A stretch of 64,000 nt of DNA, from assembly GCF_003991155.1 (NCBI RefSeq), contig NZ_CP031294.1. One strand, given 5' to 3'. Below are positions 31,732-63,960 of the stretch, piece by piece. The DNA comes from Escherichia coli. Its GTDB lineage: Bacteria; Pseudomonadota; Gammaproteobacteria; Enterobacterales; Enterobacteriaceae. Under the pieces are notes generated by a model. The model was not told the origin of the DNA and did not search any database. It saw nothing but the letters and a program-made list of their open reading frames with translations. A program made the position numbers and the translations under genes. Each line of letters begins with the position of its first letter. Position 1 is the stretch's first letter.

Positions 31732-33765
31732 TTACTTAACCTGGTGGCCTGGTTTAGCACCAGCATCCGGGCTTAACAGGAAGATATCTTTCCCGCCGGG
31801 GCCAGCAGCCATCACCATGCCTTCGGAGATACCGAAGCGCATTTTACGCGGAGCCAGGTTAGCCACCATAATGGTGTGACGACCAATCAGTGCCTGTGGG
31901 TCTGGATAAGCAGAACGGATGCCTGAGAAGACATTACGCTTTTCACCACCGAGATCCAGTGTCAGACGCAGCAGTTTGTCAGAACCTTCGACAAACTCCG
32001 CGTTTTCAATCAGCGCCACACGCAGGTCAACTTTGGCGAAGTCGTCAAAGGTGATGGTTTCCTGAATCGGGTCGTCAGCCAGTGGGCCAGTTACCGGTGC
32101 AGCTGTGGCTTTCACTTCTTCTTTGGATGCTTCCACCAGTGCTTCCACCTGTTTCATATCGATACGGTTATACAATGCCTTGAACGGATTCACTTTATGG
32201 CCCAGCAGCGGTTGCTGGATACCATCCCAGGTCAGTTCTGTATTCAGGAATGCTTCTGCACGTTCAGTCAGTTTCGGCAGTACCGGTTTCAAGTACGTCA
32301 TCAGCACGCGGAACAGGTTAATGCCCATAGAGCAAATCGCCTGCAGATCGGCATCGCGTCCTTCCTGCTTCGCCACCACCCACGGAGCCTGTTCATCGAC
32401 ATATCGGTTAGCCAGGTCAGCCAATGCCATGATTTCACGGATAGCTTTACCAAATTCGCGGCTTTCCCATGCTTCGCCAATCACTTCAGCGGCATCAGTA
32501 AAGGTTTTGTACAGTTGCGGGTCAGCCAGTTCGCTTGCCAGCACGCCGTCAAAACGCTTGTTGATAAAGCCTGCATTACGGGAGGCCAGGTTAACCACTT
32601 TGTTCACGATATCGGCATTCACGCGCTGAACGAAATCCTCCAGGTTGAGATCGATATCATCAATGCGCGAAGAGAGTTTCGCAGTGTAGTAGTAACGCAG
32701 GCTGTCGGCGTCAAAATGATTCAGCCAGGTGCTGGCTTTAATAAAGGTGCCGCGAGACTTGGACATCTTCGCGCCGTTCACCGTCACATAGCCGTGAACA
32801 AACAGGTTGGTCGGCTTGCGGAAGTTGCTGCCTTCCAGCATGGCAGGCCAGAACAGGCTGTGGAAGTAAACAATATCTTTACCGATGAAGTGGTACAGCT
32901 CGGCTGTGGAGTCTTTCTTCCAGTATTCATCGAAGCTGGTGGTATCGCCGCGCTTGTCGCACAGATTCTTGAAGGAACCCATGTAGCCAATCGGCGCGTC
33001 CAGCCAGACGTAGAAATATTTGCCCGGCGCGTTCGGAATTTCAAAACCGAAGTAAGGCGCATCGCGGGAGATATCCCACTGTTGCAGGCCGGATTCAAAC
33101 CACTCCTGCATTTTGTTCGCCACCTGCTCCTGCAACGCACCGCTGCGGGTCCATGCCTGCAACATTTCGCTGAAAGAGGGCAGATCAAAGAAGAAGTGTT
33201 CGGAATCACGCATTACCGGGGTAGCGCCAGAAACCACCGATTTCGGCTCGATCAATTCAGTCGGGCTATATGTTGCGCCGCAGACTTCACAGTTATCGCC
33301 GTATTGATCTGGCGCTTTACATTTCGGGCAGGTGCCTTTCACAAAACGATCCGGCAGGAACATGCCTTTTTCCGGGTCGTACAACTGAGAGATAGTGCGG
33401 TTTTTAATAAAACCGTTCTCTTTCAGGCGAGTATAGATAAGCTCAGACAGCTGGCGGTTCTCTTCGCTGTGCGTCGAGTGATAGTTGTCATAGCTGATGT
33501 TAAAGCCTGCGAAATCAGTCTGGTGTTCCTGACTCATTTCGCCAATCATCTGCTCCGGTGTGATACCAAGCTGCTGTGCTTTCAGCATGATCGGCGTACC
33601 GTGGGCATCGTCGGCACAGATGAAATTAACCTCGTGGCCGCGCATTCGCTGGTAACGAACCCAGACATCAGCCTGGATGTGCTCCAGCATATGGCCGAGG
33701 TGGATTGAGCCGTTAGCGTACGGCAGCGCGCACGTCACCAGAATTTTCTTCGCGACTTGGGTCAT
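31732..33765 (-). CDS. metG: methionyl-tRNA synthetase
   Basis: 677-aa product [29 protein letters not shown]... recalled as essentially E. coli MetG (HIGH motif, KMSKS, C-terminal tRNA-binding domain); start at ATG 33763-33765, ORF-track upstream extension rejected. Confidence 0.97.
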
Positions 33766-33922
33766 AGTAGGCATTACTTCTTTGTAGTGAAAAGGGGCTT
33801 GATAGTAACAAAATGGCCTTATGTCTGCCATGTGATAACAGCATTTCTCATAAATGATTAAATGTCGTAGCTGGAGTACACTACAAGGCGACAATTGCGC
33901 AAATTAAAATAAAGGAGACGGG

Positions 33923-35023
33923 ATGAGCGAGTCCAAATCGCCGGATGCCCTGAGAGCAATGGTAGCCGGTACGCTGGCTAATTTTCAGCACCCAACCCTG
34001 AAACACAACCTGACTACGCTTAAAGCGTTACACCATGTTGCGTTGATGGATGACACACTGCATGTCGAACTAATCATGCCTTTCGTGTGGAATAAGCCTT
34101 TTGAAGACCTGAAAGAGCAATGTAGTGGTGATCTGCTCCGTATCACTGGCGCAAAGGCTATTGACTGGAAGCTGTCGTACAACATTGCCACGCTTAAGCG
34201 CGTCAAAAACCAACCAGGCATTAATGGCGTTAAGAACATTATCGCCGTCAGCTCAGGCAAGGGCGGCGTGGGTAAATCCTCCACGGCGGTAAACCTGGCA
34301 CTGGCGTTGGCTGCTGAAGGTGCGAAAGTTGGTATTTTGGATGCCGATATCTATGGTCCATCAATTCCAACCATGCTGGGCGCGGAAAACCAACGTCCAA
34401 CCTCACCTGACGGTACTCACATGGCACCTATCATGTCTCATGGCCTGGCAACCAACTCTATTGGTTATCTGGTCACCGACGACAATGCAATGGTGTGGCG
34501 TGGACCGATGGCCAGCAAGGCGCTGATGCAGATGTTGCAGGAAACTCTATGGCCTGATCTGGACTATCTCGTTCTCGATATGCCGCCGGGCACTGGTGAT
34601 ATTCAGTTGACGCTGGCGCAGAACATTCCTGTAACTGGTGCGGTTGTGGTAACTACGCCGCAAGACATCGCGCTGATCGATGCGAAGAAAGGCATTGTGA
34701 TGTTCGAAAAAGTCGAAGTGCCGGTACTGGGTATCGTCGAAAACATGAGTGTGCATATTTGCAGTAACTGCGGTCATCACGAGCCAATTTTTGGCACCGG
34801 TGGCGCACAGAAACTGGCCGAGAAATACAACACGCAGTTGTTAGGCCAAATGCCACTTCATATCTCTCTTCGTGAAGATCTGGATAACGGAACACCAACC
34901 GTTATTAGTCGTCCAGATAGCGAATTTACGGCTATTTATCGTGACCTCGCAGATCGCGTTGCCGCCCAAATGTATTGGCAAGGTGAAGTAATACCTGGCG
35001 AAATCGCATTCCGCGCAGTGTGA
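33923..35023 (+). CDS. apbC: Fe-S cluster carrier ATPase ApbC/Mrp
   Basis: 366 aa; P-loop SSGKGGVGKSSTAVNLALALA; CxxC motif ICSNCGHHEP; divergent from metG as in Escherichia chromosome. Confidence 0.95.
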   Translation: MSESKSPDALRAMVAGTLANFQHPTLKHNLTTLKALHHVALMDDTLHVELIMPFVWNKPFEDLKEQCSGDLLRITGAKAIDWKLSYNIATLKRVKNQPGINGVKNIIAVSSGKGGVGKSSTAVNLALALAAEGAKVGILDADIYGPSIPTMLGAENQRPTSPDGTHMAPIMSHGLATNSIGYLVTDDNAMVWRGPMASKALMQMLQETLWPDLDYLVLDMPPGTGDIQLTLAQNIPVTGAVVVTTPQDIALIDAKKGIVMFEKVEVPVLGIVENMSVHICSNCGHHEPIFGTGGAQKLAEKYNTQLLGQMPLHISLREDLDNGTPTVISRPDSEFTAIYRDLADRVAAQMYWQGEVIPGEIAFRAV

Positions 35024-36151: not shown

Positions 36152-37710
36152 ATGAAAATGACAAGTATTCAACAACGTGCAGAGCTTCATCGCCAGATCT
36201 GGCAAATTGCTAACGATGTCAGGGGTTCAGTCGATGGATGGGATTTTAAGCAGTACGTTTTGGGCGCGCTTTTTTACCGTTTTATCAGCGAAAATTTTTC
36301 CAGTTATATTGAAGCCGGTGATGACAGTATCTGTTATGCGAAACTGGATGACAGCGTAATTACTGATGACATTAAAGACGATGCCATCAAAACTAAAGGC
36401 TACTTCATCTACCCCAGTCAGCTTTTCTGCAACGTAGCTGCGAAAGCAAATACTAATGACAGACTGAATGCAGATTTAAACAGCATCTTCGTTGCTATCG
36501 AAAGTTCTGCTTACGGTTATCCTTCAGAAGCTGACATCAAAGGTTTGTTTGCTGATTTCGATACCACCAGTAACCGCCTGGGTAACACCGTTAAAGATAA
36601 AAATGCCCGCTTGGCTGCGGTTCTGAAAGGGGTTGAAGGGCTAAAACTTGGTGACTTCCATGAACATCAGATTGACCTGTTCGGTGACGCCTATGAGTTC
36701 CTGATTTCTAACTATGCGGCGAATGCCGGTAAGTCCGGCGGCGAGTTCTTTACACCGCAGCACGTCTCTAAGCTGATTGCACAACTGGCTATGCACGGGC
36801 AGACCCACGTTAACAAAATCTACGACCCGGCAGCAGGCTCCGGTTCGCTGTTGTTGCAGGCGAAAAAACAGTTTGATGACCATATCATCGAAGAAGGTTT
36901 TTTTGGTCAGGAAATCAACCATACGACCTATAACCTGGCGCGTATGAACATGTTTTTGCACAACATCAACTACGACAAGTTTGATATCAAGCTGGGTAAT
37001 ACACTGACTGAGCCGCACTTCAGAGATGAAAAACCGTTTGATGCCATCGTTTCTAACCCGCCGTATTCGGTGAAATGGATTGGCAGCGATGACCCGACGC
37101 TGATTAACGATGAACGTTTTGCCCCGGCTGGCGTTCTGGCCCCCAAATCCAAAGCTGACTTTGCGTTTGTATTACATGCGCTGAACTATCTTTCGGCCAA
37201 AGGTCGCGCTGCGATTGTCTGCTTCCCAGGCATTTTTTACCGTGGCGGCGCGGAGCAGAAAATCCGTCAGTATCTGGTCGACAATAACTATGTCGAAACC
37301 GTGATTTCACTGGCACCGAATCTGTTCTTTGGCACCACTATTGCCGTCAATATTCTGGTGCTGTCTAAACATAAAACGGATACCAAAGTTCAGTTTATTG
37401 ATGCCAGCGAACTGTTCAAAAAAGAGACTAACAACAACATTCTGACCGATGCTCATATCGAACAGATTATGCAGGTATTTGCCAGCAAGGAAGATGTTGC
37501 TCATCTGGCGAAATCTGTTGCGTTTGAGACTGTTGTCGCGAATGACTATAACCTGTCGGTGAGCAGCTATGTGGAAGCGAAAGATACTCGCGAAATTATC
37601 GATATCGCTGAGCTGAATGCTGAGCTGAAAACCACGGTCAGCAAAATCGACCAGTTGCGTAAAGATATTGATGCGATTGTTGCTGAGATTGAAGGTAGCG
37701 AGGTACAGGC

Positions 37711-37714
<4 letters not shown>
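36152..37714 (+). CDS. hsdM: Type I restriction-modification methyltransferase subunit (Type IC, EcoR124 family)
   Basis: 520 aa; N-terminus [26 protein letters not shown] recalled as EcoR124-family HsdM; AdoMet motif [10 protein letters not shown]; NPPY catalytic motif. Confidence 0.95.
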
Positions 37715-38970
<1,256 letters not shown>

Positions 38971-39091
38971 TTGACCATTGCTACCGACCGGATCACCTTA
39001 ACATCCGGTCTATATAGAGACTATTTTTTACACGCCGGAAGTCGCCCTTAAAGCCCTTCCGGCCCTTGCCAGACGGCACAAAGGATGCGCT

Positions 39092-42000
39092 ATGACTCAT
39101 CAGACACACACCATTGCTGAATCCAATAACTTTATCGTTCTTGATAAGTACATCAAAGCCGAGCAAACAGGCGACAGCTACCAGAGCGAATCGGACCTGG
39201 AACGTGAACTGATTCAGGATCTGCGGAATCAGGGCTATGAATTTATTTCCGTAAAATCTCAGTCGGCGATGCTGGCCAACGTTCGGGAACAGCTTCAGAG
39301 CCTCAATGGTGTGATGTTTAATGACAGCGAGTGGCGGCGCTTCACGGAGCAGTATCTGGACAACCCCAGCGATGGTATTCTGGATAAAACCCGTAAAATC
39401 CATATCGACTATATCTGCGACTTTATTTTTGACGACGGGCGACTTGAGAACATCTATTTGATAGATAAAAAGAATCTCATGCGCAATAAGGTGCAGATTA
39501 TCCAGCAGTTTGAACAGACGGGTTCTCATGCTAACCGTTATGACGTCACGATCCTGGTTAATGGTTTACCGCTGGTGCAAATCGAACTAAAAAAACGCGG
39601 GGTGGCGATTCGTGAGGCTTTCAACCAGATACATCGTTACAGTAAAGAGAGTTTTAACAGCGAAAATTCCCTGTTTAAGTATCTGCAACTGTTTGTCATT
39701 TCTAACGGCACCGATACCCGTTATTTTGCCAACACGACAAAGCGCGATAAAAACAGTTTTGACTTCACCATGAATTGGGCGAAATCAGACAACACGCTGA
39801 TTAAAGACCTCAAAGACTTTACCGCTACCTTTTTCCAGAAACATACTCTGCTGAATGTTCTGGTGAACTACAGCGTTTTTGACAGTAGTCAGACGCTACT
39901 GGTGATGCGACCGTACCAGATTGCCGCCACCGAGCGCATTCTGTGGAAAATTAAGAGTTCCTTTACAGCGAAGAACTGGTCAAAACCGGAAAGCGGTGGG
40001 TATATCTGGCATACTACCGGTTCTGGTAAAACCCTCACCAGCTTTAAAGCCGCGCGTCTGGCAACAGAGCTGGACTTTATTGATAAAGTCTTCTTTGTGG
40101 TCGACAGGAAAGACCTCGATTACCAGACCATGAAGGAATATCAGCGTTTTTCGCCAGACAGCGTCAACGGCTCGGAAAATACCGCAGGCCTTAAACGAAA
40201 TCTGGATAAGGACGATAACAAAATTATCGTCACTACTATTCAGAAACTCAATAACCTGATGAAAGCAGAAAGCGACCTGCCTGTATATAATCAGCAAGTG
40301 GTGTTTATATTTGATGAATGCCACCGCAGCCAGTTTGGAGAAGCGCAGAAAAACCTGAAGAAGAAATTCAAACGCTATTATCAGTTTGGTTTTACCGGCA
40401 CCCCTATTTTCCCGGAAAACGCTTTAGGCTCAGAAACGACCGCCAGCGTATTTGGTCGTGAATTGCATTCGTATGTAATTACCGATGCGATTCGTGATGA
40501 AAAAGTGCTCAAATTCAAGGTGGACTACAACGATGTGCGGCCACAGTTTAAATCTTTAGAGACAGAAACCGACGAGAAAAAACTGAGTGCGGCTGAAAAT
40601 CAGCAGGCATTTCTTCATCCCATGCGTATACAGGAAATTACGCAATATATTCTGAATAACTTCCGCCAGAAGACCCACCGTACTTTCCCAGGTTCCAAAG
40701 GCTTTAATGCCATGCTGGCAGTGAGTAGCGTGGATGCCGCGAAAGCCTATTACGCGACGTTTAAACGGTTACAAGAGGAAGCAGCTAATAAATCGGCTAC
40801 CTATAAACCGCTGCGTGTTGCAACAATCTTCTCCTTTGCCGCCAATGAAGAACAAAATGCCATTGGTGAAATTTCCGATGAAACTTTTGATACCAGCGCA
40901 ATGGACAGCAGTGCTAAAGAGTTTCTTGACGCTGCAATTCGTGAGTATAACAGCTATTTTAAAACTAACTTCAGCACCGACAGTAACGGTTTTCAGAACT
41001 ACTATCGTGATTTAGCCCAACGGGTTAAAAATCAGGATATCGATCTGTTAATTGTCGTTGGGATGTTTTTAACCGGCTTCGACGCTCCAACATTGAACAC
41101 GCTATTCGTCGATAAAAACTTGCGTTTTCACGGCCTGATGCAGGCATTCTCCCGTACCAACCGCATTTATGACGCTACTAAAACCTTCGGTAACATCGTC
41201 ACTTTTCGGGATCTGGAACGCTCAACCATTGATGCCATAACGCTGTTTGGTGATAAAAATACTAAAAATGTGGTGTTAGAAAAGAGTTATGCTGAGTATA
41301 TGGAAGGCTTTACAGATGCTGCCACTGGTGAAGCTAAACGCGGCTTTATGGCAGTAGTTTCAGAACTGGAACAACGGTTCCCTGACCCTGCCAGTATTGA
41401 AAGTGAAAAACAGAAGAAAGACTTCGTAAAACTGTTTGGTGAATACCTGCGTGCCGAGAACATCCTGCAAAACTATGATGAATTTGCCACGCTGAAAGCC
41501 CTGCAACAAATCGATCTTAGCGATCCTGTTGCGGTAGAAAAATTCAAAGCAGAACATTATGTGGATGATGAAAAGTTCGCTGAATTGCAAACAATTCGTC
41601 TCCCTGCTGAACGCAAGATTCAGGATTATCGTTCTGCCTATAACGATATTCGCGACTGGCAGCGCCGTGAGAAAGAAGCTGAGAAAAAAGAGAAATCAAC
41701 CACTGACTGGGATGACGTAGTTTTTGAGGTCGATTTGCTGAAGTCTCAGGAAATAAACCTGGATTATATCCTTGGACTGATTTTCGAACACAACAGACAA
41801 AATAAAGGCAAGGGCGAAATGATCGAAGAGGTCAAACGCTTAATTCGTTCAAGCCTGGGGAACCGGGCGAAAGAGGGCCTGGTGGTCGATTTTATTCAGC
41901 AAACGAACCTGGATGATTTACCAGACAAAGCCAGTATCATTGAGGCATTCTTTACGTTTGCTCAACGCGAACAGCAACGTGAAGCAGAAGCATTGATAAA

Positions 42001-42208
42001 AGAAGAAAATCTCAATGAAGAGGCGGCGAAACGCTATATTCGCACGTCTTTAAAACGCGAATACGCCACCGAAAATGGCACAGAATTAAACGAGACATTA
42101 CCAAAACTTAGTCCGTTAAACCCGCAATATAAAACGAAAAAACAGACCGTTTTCCAGAAAATCGTCACGTTTATTGAAAAGTTCAAAGGAGTAGGTGGGC
42201 AGATATAG
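39092..42208 (+). CDS. hsdR: Type I R-M restriction endonuclease/translocase subunit
   Basis: 1038 aa, same length as EcoR124I HsdR; SF2 helicase motifs (GSGKT, FDECH), N-terminal nuclease region. Confidence 0.95.
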
Positions 42209-42266
42209 TGTATTAATCTGAACCAGATCTGGCAGACATCTGTGCAAATTGCAGATAGCTGTCAGA

Positions 42267-42677
42267 TCAAACCATCGTAGGGATGTTTGTATCCACTTTG
42301 AACTCAGGTACACCAACGAACTCTTTAACCTTCATCTGGTAGCCGGTTCTGTCAGTTTTGATGACTTCCTGTTTGCCCTCTATAAACTGCTCACGCCACT
42401 CGTCGCGACGGGAAGCTGGCATGATCAGCAAAACGTTAGTCATATCCGTGACCTTCCTCCAGTACTCGGCCCAAATATTCTGTTTCACCCATTCCAGATC
42501 GACTTTATCCAGCCAAGCTCGATTCAAACGTGAGCGTTCTTCATCTGGTCGATGGTTTAGTCTCAGCAGGCGATTAATCATGTTGTGGCGTTCGTCGCCA
42601 TAAACGAAGTCGTGTACCTGATACATGAAGGCGATCTCTTTCTCGCACTCGGCCACGATTTCGTGGATGACATTCAT
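42267..42677 (-). CDS. hypothetical protein convergent with hsdR
   Basis: 136-aa ORF with AGGA RBS; no family recognised. Confidence 0.4.
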   Translation of the reverse strand: MNVIHEIVAECEKEIAFMYQVHDFVYGDERHNMINRLLRLNHRPDEERSRLNRAWLDKVDLEWVKQNIWAEYWRKVTDMTNVLLIMPASRRDEWREQFIEGKQEVIKTDRTGYQMKVKEFVGVPEFKVDTNIPTMV

Positions 42678-42681
42678 TTCC

Positions 42682-42712
42682 TGCCGATAGTCGATAGTCG
42701 ATAGTCGATAGC
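42682..42712. repeat. 7-bp tandem repeat (gatagtc/ctatcga x4) immediately upstream of RBS of 42267..42677
   Basis: ccgatagtcgatagtcgatagtcgatagc read directly. Confidence 0.85.
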
Positions 42713-42860
42713 AGCGTTTGAGTTGGGATCGTCGATGATGGAAAGGGCTGTATTCATAATAGCACCATTAAGAAGTGATTTGTTTAATGGTGCTATTATT
42801 TCAAAAATGAAAAGGTACTAAATAGAAATAAACAGGCAATCCTTCAAATAAAGGCATTGG

Positions 42861-43532
42861 CTAATCATACTTGGAGGTATTTATCACCAGAATTTTGTTT
42901 GTATAAATCTTCTTAATATCCCATGTGACATTACCGGAATACCATTGACCGTTATATACTTGGTTTCCAGTTGCACCTGTCATTGTTACATAGACAGGTC
43001 TGTCGTAATCGGTTCGTCTATAGTTATATACTCCAACCATAGCAGGCATTACCGCACATGGATACCCCATATCTATTGTAAATTGAGGGTCAGAAATAGT
43101 GATAAGTTTCGCATCAAGGGGCATCATCTCACCGTGATACACCATTGCGCCTGCGCTGTTATACATGGCAATGCCATAGCCAGAATGTGGTAACACCATA
43201 TCAGAAAAAGCATAAACTGTTATTGTTCCGGGGCTACCATTTACCTGATGCAATCTGAGAGCATTGTATCCGTTACTATGTTCATGAATAAACATCATGT
43301 TCGCCTTATTACTGCTTTTTATGAAAAAAAAACATGATTTGTTTGATGGGATTGATGTTTGAAAAACAGAACCTTTAGATGTAGACATTGTCCCTTTATT
43401 AATCAGATTTTGCGGAGTAAATTCAGGACTCATCCACAAACTTCCATCTGATTGAGTAATTGACATCCCGAACATAATTATCCCCAGTATGTGTATATGT
43501 AAGAACCAAGCCCCGTATATAAATTTGACCAA
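42861..43532 (-). CDS. Tyr/Asn/Gly-rich hypothetical protein (TTG start; possibly 3' part of a frameshifted gene)
   Basis: 223-aa ORF with TTG start, AT-rich; overlaps upstream 93-aa ORF in a different frame. Confidence 0.3.
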   Translation of the reverse strand: MVKFIYGAWFLHIHILGIIMFGMSITQSDGSLWMSPEFTPQNLINKGTMSTSKGSVFQTSIPSNKSCFFFIKSSNKANMMFIHEHSNGYNALRLHQVNGSPGTITVYAFSDMVLPHSGYGIAMYNSAGAMVYHGEMMPLDAKLITISDPQFTIDMGYPCAVMPAMVGVYNYRRTDYDRPVYVTMTGATGNQVYNGQWYSGNVTWDIKKIYTNKILVINTSKYD

Positions 43533-45892: not shown

Positions 45893-46037
45893 GTGGACTC
45901 CATCCAGTGTCAGAAAGAGTTGCGGCTGGCGATTGCCAGCCGCCTTTCTCGTTCCATCCTGGAACTGTGTCTTACCGACACATTGTCATCCTGACGCTGA
46001 TAAGATACATGATTTAAAATGATAGGTAAACACTTAC

Positions 46038-46682
46038 TTACCACTTGTTATAAACAAAACCAATATCTTTCTTGTGAGGCATATCTGCTGCTGAAAAAGC
46101 TGCGATCTTCGCGAGTCGATCACATATTTCATTTTCACGATGCCCGGCGTGACCTTTAACCCACTTCCAGCGAACATTATGTCGACTTGCGGCCTCATCC
46201 AGACGTTTCCACAGATCAACATTCTTTACCGGTTTTTTATCAGAAGTCATCCATCCATTACGTTTCCACCATTTCATCCACTGTGTCATGCCGTTTTTCA
46301 GATACTGGCTATCAGAGTACAAAATAACGTTGCATGGATATTTCAAACGCTCCAGCCCGATAAGTGCGCCCATCATCTCCATGCGGTTATTGGTGGTGCT
46401 ATGAAAACCATCTGAGAACTCGCGTTCCTCACCACGATACTGGAGAACGATACCGTAACCGCCCGGGCCACCCGGATTTTTAAGGCAAGAGCCATCACTA
46501 AAGATTTTCACGGTTTTGAGCTGGGGATTGAACTCTACGACAGGCGTTGTGGGATTGGTGCGGGGAGAATTTTTGTTTTTGGCTTTTTTGCGAGTTTTTG
46601 CTTGCGATCGGGCTGGTGTCTTCGTCGTCATATAAACTCCTGAATCAAGCGCCGCGCCGATTTTTTCCTCGCGCGTGCGCAC
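46038..46682 (-). CDS. rnhA: ribonuclease H (RNase HI family)
   Basis: C-terminal region [12 protein letters not shown]...[16 protein letters not shown]...[26 protein letters not shown]...[16 protein letters not shown] matches RNase HI; basic N-terminal extension. Confidence 0.85.
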
Positions 46683-50423: not shown

Positions 50424-51068
50424 CTAATGAACGGTCACTCGGCCACAGAACCGGTTTTCTATCTTTTCTACAGCGTTATCTAGCATTCTCATCACTGATC
50501 TGGCTCTTGCTTCAACCGTGCGATATCGGTTGGAAACGACGAAGGTTTGCAGATCTCCCCTTTGCGGATGCAGGTGAATTTTTGTCAGTTCCCCGCACAT
50601 CAACGCATCAATACGAGCGACATACAGACGGTCTAATGATGCTCGTTGTGATCGCAAGTAATCTCGCTCTGAGAGAGCGACTCCCGGGCGTAAGCCAGCA
50701 ATGGCGTTAAAGTTTGAAATAGCAGTTTTGTGGCAAAACTTTTCGATATCGAGGGCTAACTCAATACACCGATCTTCATTTGTATGGCCGACCAAATCCA
50801 ACGTGTAGGCCATAACATCAGCAGGTGTGCGATCGATAACAAAGCCTTCAACACCACGCGTAAGTAGCTCTATATGCTTTGCTATTTCCATTTGAATCTG
50901 AAGCCGCTCATATAGAGGCATAGACTCACCTACTCGAACACCGAGGCGGCTCATCAAACTTCCGACACCAGCATCCACGTAAGGGATTCCGTAATGTTTG
51001 TCGATATATTTAGCCAGGGTTGTTTTCCCACTGCCCTGAGCACCAGTGATCCCAATCCGGTAATCCAT
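50424..51068 (-). CDS. deoxynucleoside monophosphate kinase (P-loop)
   Basis: Walker A GAQGSGKTT; FVIDRTP motif; coupled to DHFR gene. Confidence 0.65.
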   Translation of the reverse strand: MDYRIGITGAQGSGKTTLAKYIDKHYGIPYVDAGVGSLMSRLGVRVGESMPLYERLQIQMEIAKHIELLTRGVEGFVIDRTPADVMAYTLDLVGHTNEDRCIELALDIEKFCHKTAISNFNAIAGLRPGVALSERDYLRSQRASLDRLYVARIDALMCGELTKIHLHPQRGDLQTFVVSNRYRTVEARARSVMRMLDNAVEKIENRFCGRVTVH

Positions 51069-51544
51069 TACGACCTTCTGTATACGATCTGCGAAAAGCC
51101 AGGCTCTTCCTCGCTGGCTCGTTGGGTATAAGCTGTTTCAACAGGCACAAAGCCTAAGTTACGCATCATGCTTGCCGGGAAGAATGCATCGGCGTTTGGT
51201 ACATCAACGCCGATGTGGGAGAGCCAAATCTCTTCAACATGCGGCATGAATAGCGAGTAAATTTGTTCCCCGCCAATCACCCACACAGGCTCTGGTAATC
51301 GCAACACATCATCCACACCAGCAGGGTAGAATCCATTTGGTACAAAGCCATGAGAGCGCGTCAAAACGAGGTTATGACGCTCTGGAAGAGGGCGTTTGAG
51401 ACTTTCCATCGTTTTACGCCCCATAACGACAGTGGCGTTTTTGGTGAGTCTCTTAAATAGCTTCAGATCGGTAGAACAACGCCAGGGGAGTTCATTCGCT
51501 ATGCCGATCTCATAGTTACGGCCAACAGCAGCGATCATCTTCAT
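51068..51544 (-). CDS. dihydrofolate reductase
   Basis: 158 aa; MIAAVGRNYEIGIANELPW, VVMGRKT motifs characteristic of DHFR. Confidence 0.85.
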   Translation of the reverse strand: MKMIAAVGRNYEIGIANELPWRCSTDLKLFKRLTKNATVVMGRKTMESLKRPLPERHNLVLTRSHGFVPNGFYPAGVDDVLRLPEPVWVIGGEQIYSLFMPHVEEIWLSHIGVDVPNADAFFPASMMRNLGFVPVETAYTQRASEEEPGFSQIVYRRS

Positions 51545-63354: not shown

Positions 63355-63430
63355 GATAGATCCAAATAAGAGATCCCAAGTAAGATCAAATAGAAGATCC
63401 AAAGAGATCCCCGATCGCCTCTAGCCGTTG
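63355..63430. promoter_or_regulatory. DnaA-box-like site plus cluster of six GATC sites
   Basis: ttatccact followed by agatcc/agatccc/agatca/agatcc/agatcccc/cgatcg within ~65 bp. Confidence 0.6.
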
Positions 63431-63454
63431 CGGTTACTGGTCTGAAAGGGTGTT

Positions 63455-63568
63455 GCCATCCACTATGGAGAGCAAAGAAACCTCTGTAGAGAGCTGAATA
63501 ACCGCTATGAAGAGTAAAACAACCACTCTGGAGAGCTGTATATATCCACTGTAGAGAGTAGAGCACAT
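63455..63568. repeat. iteron array 1 (five ~22-bp direct repeats, core CCACTNTAGAGAG)
   Basis: atccactatggagag, cctctgtagagag, ccgctatgaagag, ccactctggagag, ccactgtagagag at ~22-bp spacing. Confidence 0.8.
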
Positions 63569-63716
63569 TGTCTTTTATGGATAACTTAATGACTTAATTC
63601 TTCATTAACATACTGATATACATAGATATATTTTAAACTCTACTCTTAGTCATGATTCTTATGTCCTTAAATATCCACAGAAGAGTAGAGTTACCTGTTC
63701 TTGAAATCCTCTGATT

Positions 63717-63725
63717 TTTATCCAC
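63717..63725. promoter_or_regulatory. consensus DnaA box TTATCCACA
   Basis: Exact 9-mer read in sequence, preceding GATC-containing repeats and iteron array 2. Confidence 0.6.
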
Positions 63726-63837
63726 AGGCCCGATCCAGTAATTCAGATCACAAAGAGAACCAAAGAGACCCATAAAGACCCAATAAGATCCCCGCCCACC
63801 TCAAACCGTTGTGCCATCTGCCTTCAGACATGATCGA

Positions 63838-63960
63838 TATCCACTATAGAGAGCGAATAATCCACTATAGGGAGCAAAGCAACCACTATAGAGAGGAGAA
63901 AAACCACTATAGACGGTAGGATAACCGCTGTGATGAGTGCTACTATCCACTGTAATCAGC
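63838..63960. repeat. iteron array 2 (six ~21-bp direct repeats, core CCACTATAGAGAG)
   Basis: ccactatagagag, ccactatagggag, ccactatagagag, ccactatagacgg, ccgctgtgatgag, ccactgtaatcag. Confidence 0.8.

Follow-up and report, generated by a model that had tools for sequence, protein, structure and literature searches.

In the 64,000-nucleotide stretch of DNA analysed here (the window), the region of interest matches plasmid pGF66.1-B of E. coli GF66.1 (NZ_CP172196.1, 110,673 bp) at 100% identity, and by its coordinates the window is the last 64 kb of this record. Related non-mobilizable plasmids, ~105-125 kb in size, occur in Escherichia, Shigella, Salmonella, Klebsiella, Enterobacter and Citrobacter, and further relatives include Salmonella phage SSU5 and related phages. 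A 99.95%-identical plasmid, pEC17CM6_2, is annotated with portal, terminase, ParB, nrdAB, thymidylate synthase and similar genes, and by homology we identify the window as an SSU5-like phage-plasmid. By annotation transfer from pEC17CM6_2, full-length metG (methionine-tRNA ligase) and apbC lie at ~31732-35023. Both genes are also found in an S. sonnei relative, so they belong to the conserved phage-plasmid backbone and are not a recent capture.

At the locus itself, a Type I restriction-modification cassette occupies positions 36152-42208 on the (+) strand, delimited by its open reading frames and the pEC17CM6_2 annotation, and comprises hsdM (36152/36158-37714), hsdS (37711-38970) and hsdR (39092-42208; TIGR00348 HsdR, E 4e-230). 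Convergent with hsdR, on the (-) strand, is an open reading frame of 136 amino acids (42677-42267) that opens at the ATG at 42677-42675. Next to this ATG lies a heptanucleotide tract (42684-42711, (-) strand), which we delimited from the sequence, from Tandem Repeats Finder (TRF) and from alignment with relatives carrying three, two and five copies. A sequence-only reading of the window had described four tandem heptamers beside the gene convergent with hsdR, and this arrangement is confirmed.

TRF reports a perfect period-7 array at 42685-42711, with 3.9 copies, 100% matches and a score of 54. On the (-) strand, which is the sense strand, the units at 42711-42684 are three perfect copies of TATCGAC and a fourth, TATCGGC, with one mismatch; they are preceded by GC and followed by AGGAA and the ATG, and AACGCTGC stands directly ahead of the tract. 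The chance expectation for a 27-nucleotide perfect period-7 array is ~7e-8 per 64 kb of the window's composition, and 200 shuffles gave a mean of 0.015 arrays per window (period 4-15, at least 2.8 copies), against two in the real window, namely the heptamer tract and a 12-mer in hsdS. The heptamer array is thus real and non-random.

In plasmids that lack the hsd cassette, the homologous DNA is the 5' end of a 561-amino-acid gene (for example in pSEV4_2, and SSU5_095), annotated either as a DUF4942 domain-containing protein or as a DNA methyltransferase. Along its whole length the intact 561-amino-acid protein matches phrog_6263 ("DNA methyltransferase"; E 5e-300), with DUF4942 at residues 140-295 and a SAM-methyltransferase-like region at approximately residues 396-522. 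Motif I (EPQAGRG) and NPPY can be recognized in intact genes only, for example in the intact-length three-copy allele L050, whose motifs were read from a translation starting at the downstream ATG. A PDB sequence search with the full-length methyltransferase gave no matches. The 136-amino-acid frame of the window belongs to the same family, matching positions 23-150 of the 548 of phrog_6263 (E 1e-59) and 23-158 of phrog_16000 (E 9e-98), with plasmid homologues at 93-100% DNA identity; searches of Pfam and NCBIfam with it and with its upstream neighbours gave no matches. It also occupies the same place as SSU5_095, between an upstream 204-amino-acid gene and a downstream module, although the window keeps only the N-terminal quarter, frameshifted relative to the start codon of the family.

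The profile alignments start at position 23, which places the start of the family 22 residues ahead of the methionine of the 136-amino-acid frame. An ancestral ATG is indeed present at 42757-42755, and is conserved, together with the N-terminal codons that follow it (MNTALSIIDD...), in all seven aligned sequences from E. coli, Salmonella (SSU5) and Klebsiella. In the relatives in this alignment the heptamer is present as just two units, which are read in frame as ...A-I-D-Y-R-Q-E-M... and on into N-V. The conserved upstream ATG and codons therefore identify the repeat as coding sequence, corresponding to codons 17-22 of the ancestral methyltransferase frame, in which the two ancestral units have grown to four in the window. 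The unit, at 7 nt, is not divisible by three.

We additionally identified a conserved hairpin at the ancestral start (42756-42799, (-) strand; 16 bp with a 12-nucleotide loop in the sense transcript), with an RNA folding z of -3.7 for the 171-nucleotide region. Its 3' arm holds the likely Shine-Dalgarno sequence (GGUG) together with the A and U of the ancestral AUG. Between lineages there is one compensatory double change, A-U to U-A, and several G.U-compatible changes, with C>U changes at which pairing is preserved, as G.U, in the sense RNA alone, and the core GCACCA/UGGUGC is kept in the SSU5 and Klebsiella relatives. The hairpin could be a translational control element or a terminator of the upstream gene.

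The gene that contains the tract is truncated in the window. Homology to the intact loci of pPK8276 and pSEV4_2 ends at 42296, the position at which the blastn matches of loci L023 and L004 begin, and the sequence to the left of it, starting with the junction (42209-42295), is the hsd module. The remaining 2.7 kb of the intact loci (L023 positions 1-2736), which carry the remainder of the methyltransferase gene plus two genes downstream of it, are absent, and hsdM-hsdS-hsdR stands in their place. What survives encodes residues 1 to approximately 149 of 561, so that the 3' three-quarters of the gene, with DUF4942 and the catalytic SAM-binding/NPPY region, lie past the breakpoint and are lost. 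The 136-amino-acid frame consists of residues 23 to approximately 149 followed by nine codons and a stop from the junction sequence. Over 127 codons, the remnant differs from the intact genes by few substitutions, with scattered private changes such as W55C and R95H/Y. In-frame equivalents of the fragment are labelled by PGAP as "incomplete; missing C-terminus". The sequence-only reading had treated this frame as an unknown gene of 136 amino acids, and it is instead the 5' remnant of the 561-amino-acid methyltransferase gene, cut by the hsd cassette. In one related stump (L030; CP142569.1, pA320_p0) we noted an internal 51-nucleotide duplication (...IEGKQEVIKTDRTGYQ IIEGKQEVIKTDR...) beside a three-copy heptamer, which is further decay of the fragment.

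Since seven is not a multiple of three, every step in copy number shifts the reading frame, and translation of all loci from the ancestral ATG shows that two and five copies are in frame and that three and four are out of frame. Two copies give the intact protein of 561 amino acids, or 158 amino acids in the truncated form; five copies give an in-frame stump of 165 amino acids; and three copies give a 58-codon frame that runs beyond the internal ATG. The four copies of the window give a 27-codon frame (MNTALSIIDDPNSNAAIDYRLSTIGRK and stop; 42757-42674, (-) strand) that crosses the repeat and ends at the TGA at 42676-42674, overlapping the ATG of the 136-amino-acid frame (ATGA). It is this frameshift that leads gene callers to choose the internal ATG, and thus to report a 136-amino-acid hypothetical protein.

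We investigated the copy number of the heptamer across related sequences. Among the best 60 of 233 matching complete-genome records of E. coli, ranked by score, two copies are present in 50, three in 3 (EC17CM6, OW849379 and MB53), four in 5 (PK8276, MB30, GF66.1, elppa10 and CUPF06) and five in 2 (88COLEC and M21170). Most additional PLSDB records have two copies, with a single record of three (CP142569). IMG/VR sequences have two copies in 17 of 18 cases and three in the other, and all 15 metagenome contigs have two, as do SSU5 and the Klebsiella plasmids. A metagenome scan for a pattern of at least three copies and a genome-contig scan with a general heptamer pattern both returned zero matches. 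Overall, more than 95% of ~450 relatives, including all the distant lineages, have just two copies, some of them impure (TATCGAT, TACCGG), and the largest number seen was five. The long tract is therefore not a feature kept across the family; copy number is nevertheless polymorphic among close isolates, from two to five. The sequence-only reading had proposed that the tract is prone to slippage and that copy number should be compared across related isolates; that comparison shows it to be variable, with near-identical plasmids one unit apart.

The expanded alleles of E. coli fall within one sub-lineage, recognizable by an A>G change 5 nucleotides upstream of the tract. Among the fetched loci, with the window and its source record counted once, all 12 expanded alleles of this sub-lineage carry AACGCTGC (the G marker), while all the two-copy alleles carry AACACTGC. 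The shared marker indicates a single original expansion. Eleven of the 12 are hsd-truncated stumps, the only intact gene being that of pPK8276 (four copies), and only 2 of the 12 are in frame, roughly in line with the one-third to be expected without selection for frame. The closest two-copy haplotype (L038) shares the stump protein and the hairpin variant and is itself truncated, suggesting that the expansion probably arose after the gene had already been cut.

Within the expanded sub-lineage, copy number has changed repeatedly. The window and pEC17CM6_2 differ across 50,019 aligned nucleotides by 6 SNPs and 2 indels, and both indels are repeat units: the heptamer, at four against three copies, and the hsdS 12-mer, at three against two TAEL units. 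The two varying repeats are the two best perfect tandem repeats of the window, and this pair of sister phage-plasmids, whose only indels in 50 kb are repeat units, thus offers a clean natural example of fast short-repeat mutation. At least four copy changes (4/3, 4/5, 4/3 and 4/3) separate nearest-neighbour pairs, a minimum that counts such pairs only, the 2.8-kb flanks being mosaic or recombinant by the distance matrix. In Shigella sonnei, pAUSMDU00010534_01 and plasmid 2 of AUSMDU00008333 are separated by 4 SNPs and 3 indels over 40.3 kb. A heptamer unit accounts for one of these indels (three against two copies); this expansion is an independent event, in a separate lineage and in an intact gene. 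These close pairs show that the copy changes are recent. Identical five-copy alleles were found in Singapore and Argentina, and identical three-copy alleles are likewise shared between China and a human isolate (OW849379), indicating that the alleles are inherited stably over epidemiological time.

We consider it probable that the tract is a neutral, slippage-prone simple sequence repeat (SSR), a relic in a decaying gene fragment, most likely without a regulatory role in this plasmid. Under this explanation, an intragenic SSR at the 5' end of an SSU5-family methyltransferase gene would change in length by replication slippage. The two ancestral in-frame units have grown to three to five in one E. 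coli sub-lineage, and the lengthened tract, a microsatellite whose instability grows with its length, gains or loses units at roughly the pace at which point mutations build up across tens of kb. The hsdMSR cassette has removed everything past approximately codon 149, leaving a stump, and in the four-copy allele of the window a ribosome that starts at the ancestral AUG would reach a stop after 27 codons, the UGA that overlaps the start chosen by gene callers. With the gene cut short and also frameshifted in the window, the repeat is most likely idle here; in a truncated 5' remnant, an on/off switch would have little to control. Several observations run counter to the relic explanation. The repeated copy changes in close relatives also fit a contingency locus, and expanded out-of-frame alleles occur in two otherwise intact genes, those of pPK8276 (four copies) and of S. 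sonnei pAUSMDU00010534_01 (three copies). The stop and start of the four-copy frame overlap exactly (AUGA), which could permit reinitiation. Finally, the stump may retain a residual function, as the 158-amino-acid form is in frame in many hsd-carrying plasmids.

The main rival is translational phase variation of the kind known for neuO, the phase-variable capsule O-acetyltransferase gene of the E. coli K1 prophage CUS-3. Here the methyltransferase, or its N-terminal fragment, would be ON at 2, 5 and 8 copies and OFF at 3, 4, 6 and 7, and termination-reinitiation at the AUGA overlap might still allow expression from four copies. In neuO a heptamer, AAGACTC, lies in the 5' coding sequence and the gene is ON when the repeat number, which ranges from 3 to 53 copies, is divisible by three (PMC13001214). 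The likeness is considerable, as both genes lie on phage-derived mobile elements of E. coli and both carry a 5'-coding heptanucleotide repeat, with strand slippage and a frame set by copy number (PMC13001214), although the frame is open at n = 2 mod 3 in this family and at n = 0 mod 3 in neuO. The location and unit length of the tract, its range of two to five copies among near-identical plasmids, the out-of-frame alleles of the two intact genes, the ATGA overlap and the neuO precedent itself (PMC13001214) all speak for a switch. However, neuO tracts are long, commonly of ~20 copies, and are polymorphic in most strains, with measurable heterogeneity within cultures and an intact gene (3-53 copies; PMC13001214), whereas the norm in the present family is two copies, some of them impure, with a low maximum of five. 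The variation, unlike that of neuO, is confined to one sub-lineage and one sporadic event, and the expanded alleles occur almost entirely where the gene was already truncated, with no catalytic domain in the window to be switched. The stable inheritance of the three- and five-copy alleles argues against switching as well. We therefore regard phase variation as unlikely. The suggestion in the sequence-only reading of phase variation by slipped-strand mispairing is supported insofar as the tract is slippage-prone; the mechanism it proposed, a change in promoter-RBS spacing, and the target it named are not supported.

A related possibility, which we consider improbable, is that the tract is a nascent contingency locus of SSU5-like phage-plasmids, in which slippage in the intact alleles toggles an orphan N6-adenine-type DNA methyltransferase. 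The four-copy AUGA allele might then make a protein lacking its first 22 residues, via termination-reinitiation. If true, this could change the protection of the plasmid from host restriction, or the methylation of the host, and hsd-carrying plasmids would then have two switches, this one and the hsdS TAEL repeat, which changes Type I specificity. Phasevarions are known from SSRs in Type III mod and Type I hsd genes of Haemophilus, Neisseria and others (PMC7383803, PMC4525171). The present tract resembles them in being an SSR inside a DNA methyltransferase coding sequence, where frame shifts would switch methylation (PMC7383803, PMC4525171). It differs in that the gene is an orphan phage-plasmid methyltransferase (DUF4942/phrog_6263) and not mod or hsd, and in that the tract is very short and the catalytic part is absent in the window. 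If intact alleles did switch at high frequency, neuO would have a counterpart, a second heptanucleotide switch of its kind on an E. coli/Shigella phage element, controlling DNA methylation; the census argues against such switching.

The sequence-only reading had taken AGGAA to be the RBS of the 136-amino-acid gene and had supposed that changes in copy number alter promoter-RBS spacing. Under such a model the repeat would be a promoter-to-RBS spacer of an independent gene, its copy number tuning transcription or translation initiation, and it is true that AGGAA sits between the repeat and the ATG and that PGAP (RefSeq) calls the 136-amino-acid frame from the internal ATG in three- and four-copy plasmids. 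A scan for sigma-70 promoters and terminators over 42100-43000, however, found nothing on the (-) strand of the gene, and with no sigma-70-like site on that strand the promoter-spacer model was dropped. AGGAA ends 1 nucleotide before the ATG, a gap too small for normal Shine-Dalgarno spacing, and in relatives it forms the codons CAG GAA (Gln-Glu) of the longer frame. The tract likewise is not non-coding DNA, lying inside the conserved ancestral frame 16 codons past its start, so that a change in copy number alters the frame and not a spacing. The likely Shine-Dalgarno sequence and the ancestral AUG lie 80 nucleotides upstream, within the conserved hairpin, and the frame thought to be controlled is itself a truncated fragment. 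A spacer function is thus very unlikely. We give hardly any credence to a protein-binding array of iteron- or operator-like repeats or to an assembly artefact. A protein could in principle bind the four direct repeats, which share one DNA face, and errors of assembly could in principle produce copy-number differences, but nearly all relatives have only two copies of a sequence constrained as coding, and the same counts, differing by exact 7-nucleotide units, recur in independent assemblies from different laboratories.

Literature searches on DUF4942 and on SSU5 phage-plasmid methyltransferases found no paper describing the tract. The main consequence is for annotation: the RefSeq "136-aa hypothetical protein" of the three- and four-copy plasmids represents the 5' end of a DNA methyltransferase gene, both frameshifted and truncated, and what looks like an RBS beside the repeat is coding sequence.

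The second perfect repeat of the window, in hsdS (38263-38302, (+) strand; 12-nucleotide unit, 3.3 copies, TRF score 80), encodes three TAEL units within the HsdS central coiled-coil, and pEC17CM6_2, with a 12-nucleotide deletion, has two units. This is the classic TAEL repeat of EcoR124I and EcoR124II, in which a change from two to three units shifts recognition from GAAN6RTCG to GAAN7RTCG (PMC7383803). The sister plasmids probably differ in restriction specificity, by analogy with this effect. The TAEL repeat is separate from the heptamer: its 12-nucleotide unit stays in frame and alters specificity rather than switching expression.

We additionally noted several minor features of the window. 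In the region from 42296 leftwards to ~35500, compared with the S. sonnei plasmid, hsdMSR also replaces a run of small genes for an ead/Ea22-like protein, a ClpX zinc-finger protein, a DUF551 protein and a toprim protein, up to the S24 peptidase gene. This region looks like a hotspot at which defence and anti-defence genes are exchanged. An rnhA-like gene at ~46019-46679 is annotated as frameshifted in pEC17CM6_2, with no indel there between that plasmid and the window, and a dihydrofolate reductase gene at ~51049-51525, in a nucleotide-metabolism cluster, is annotated as trimethoprim-resistant DfrA51. Finally, near the end of the window (63358-63913), TRF identified a cluster of imperfect 10-, 12-, 21- and 42-nucleotide tandem repeats, for example CCACTATAGAGAGCGAAAAAA in 3.5 copies, which may be plasmid iterons or partition sites.
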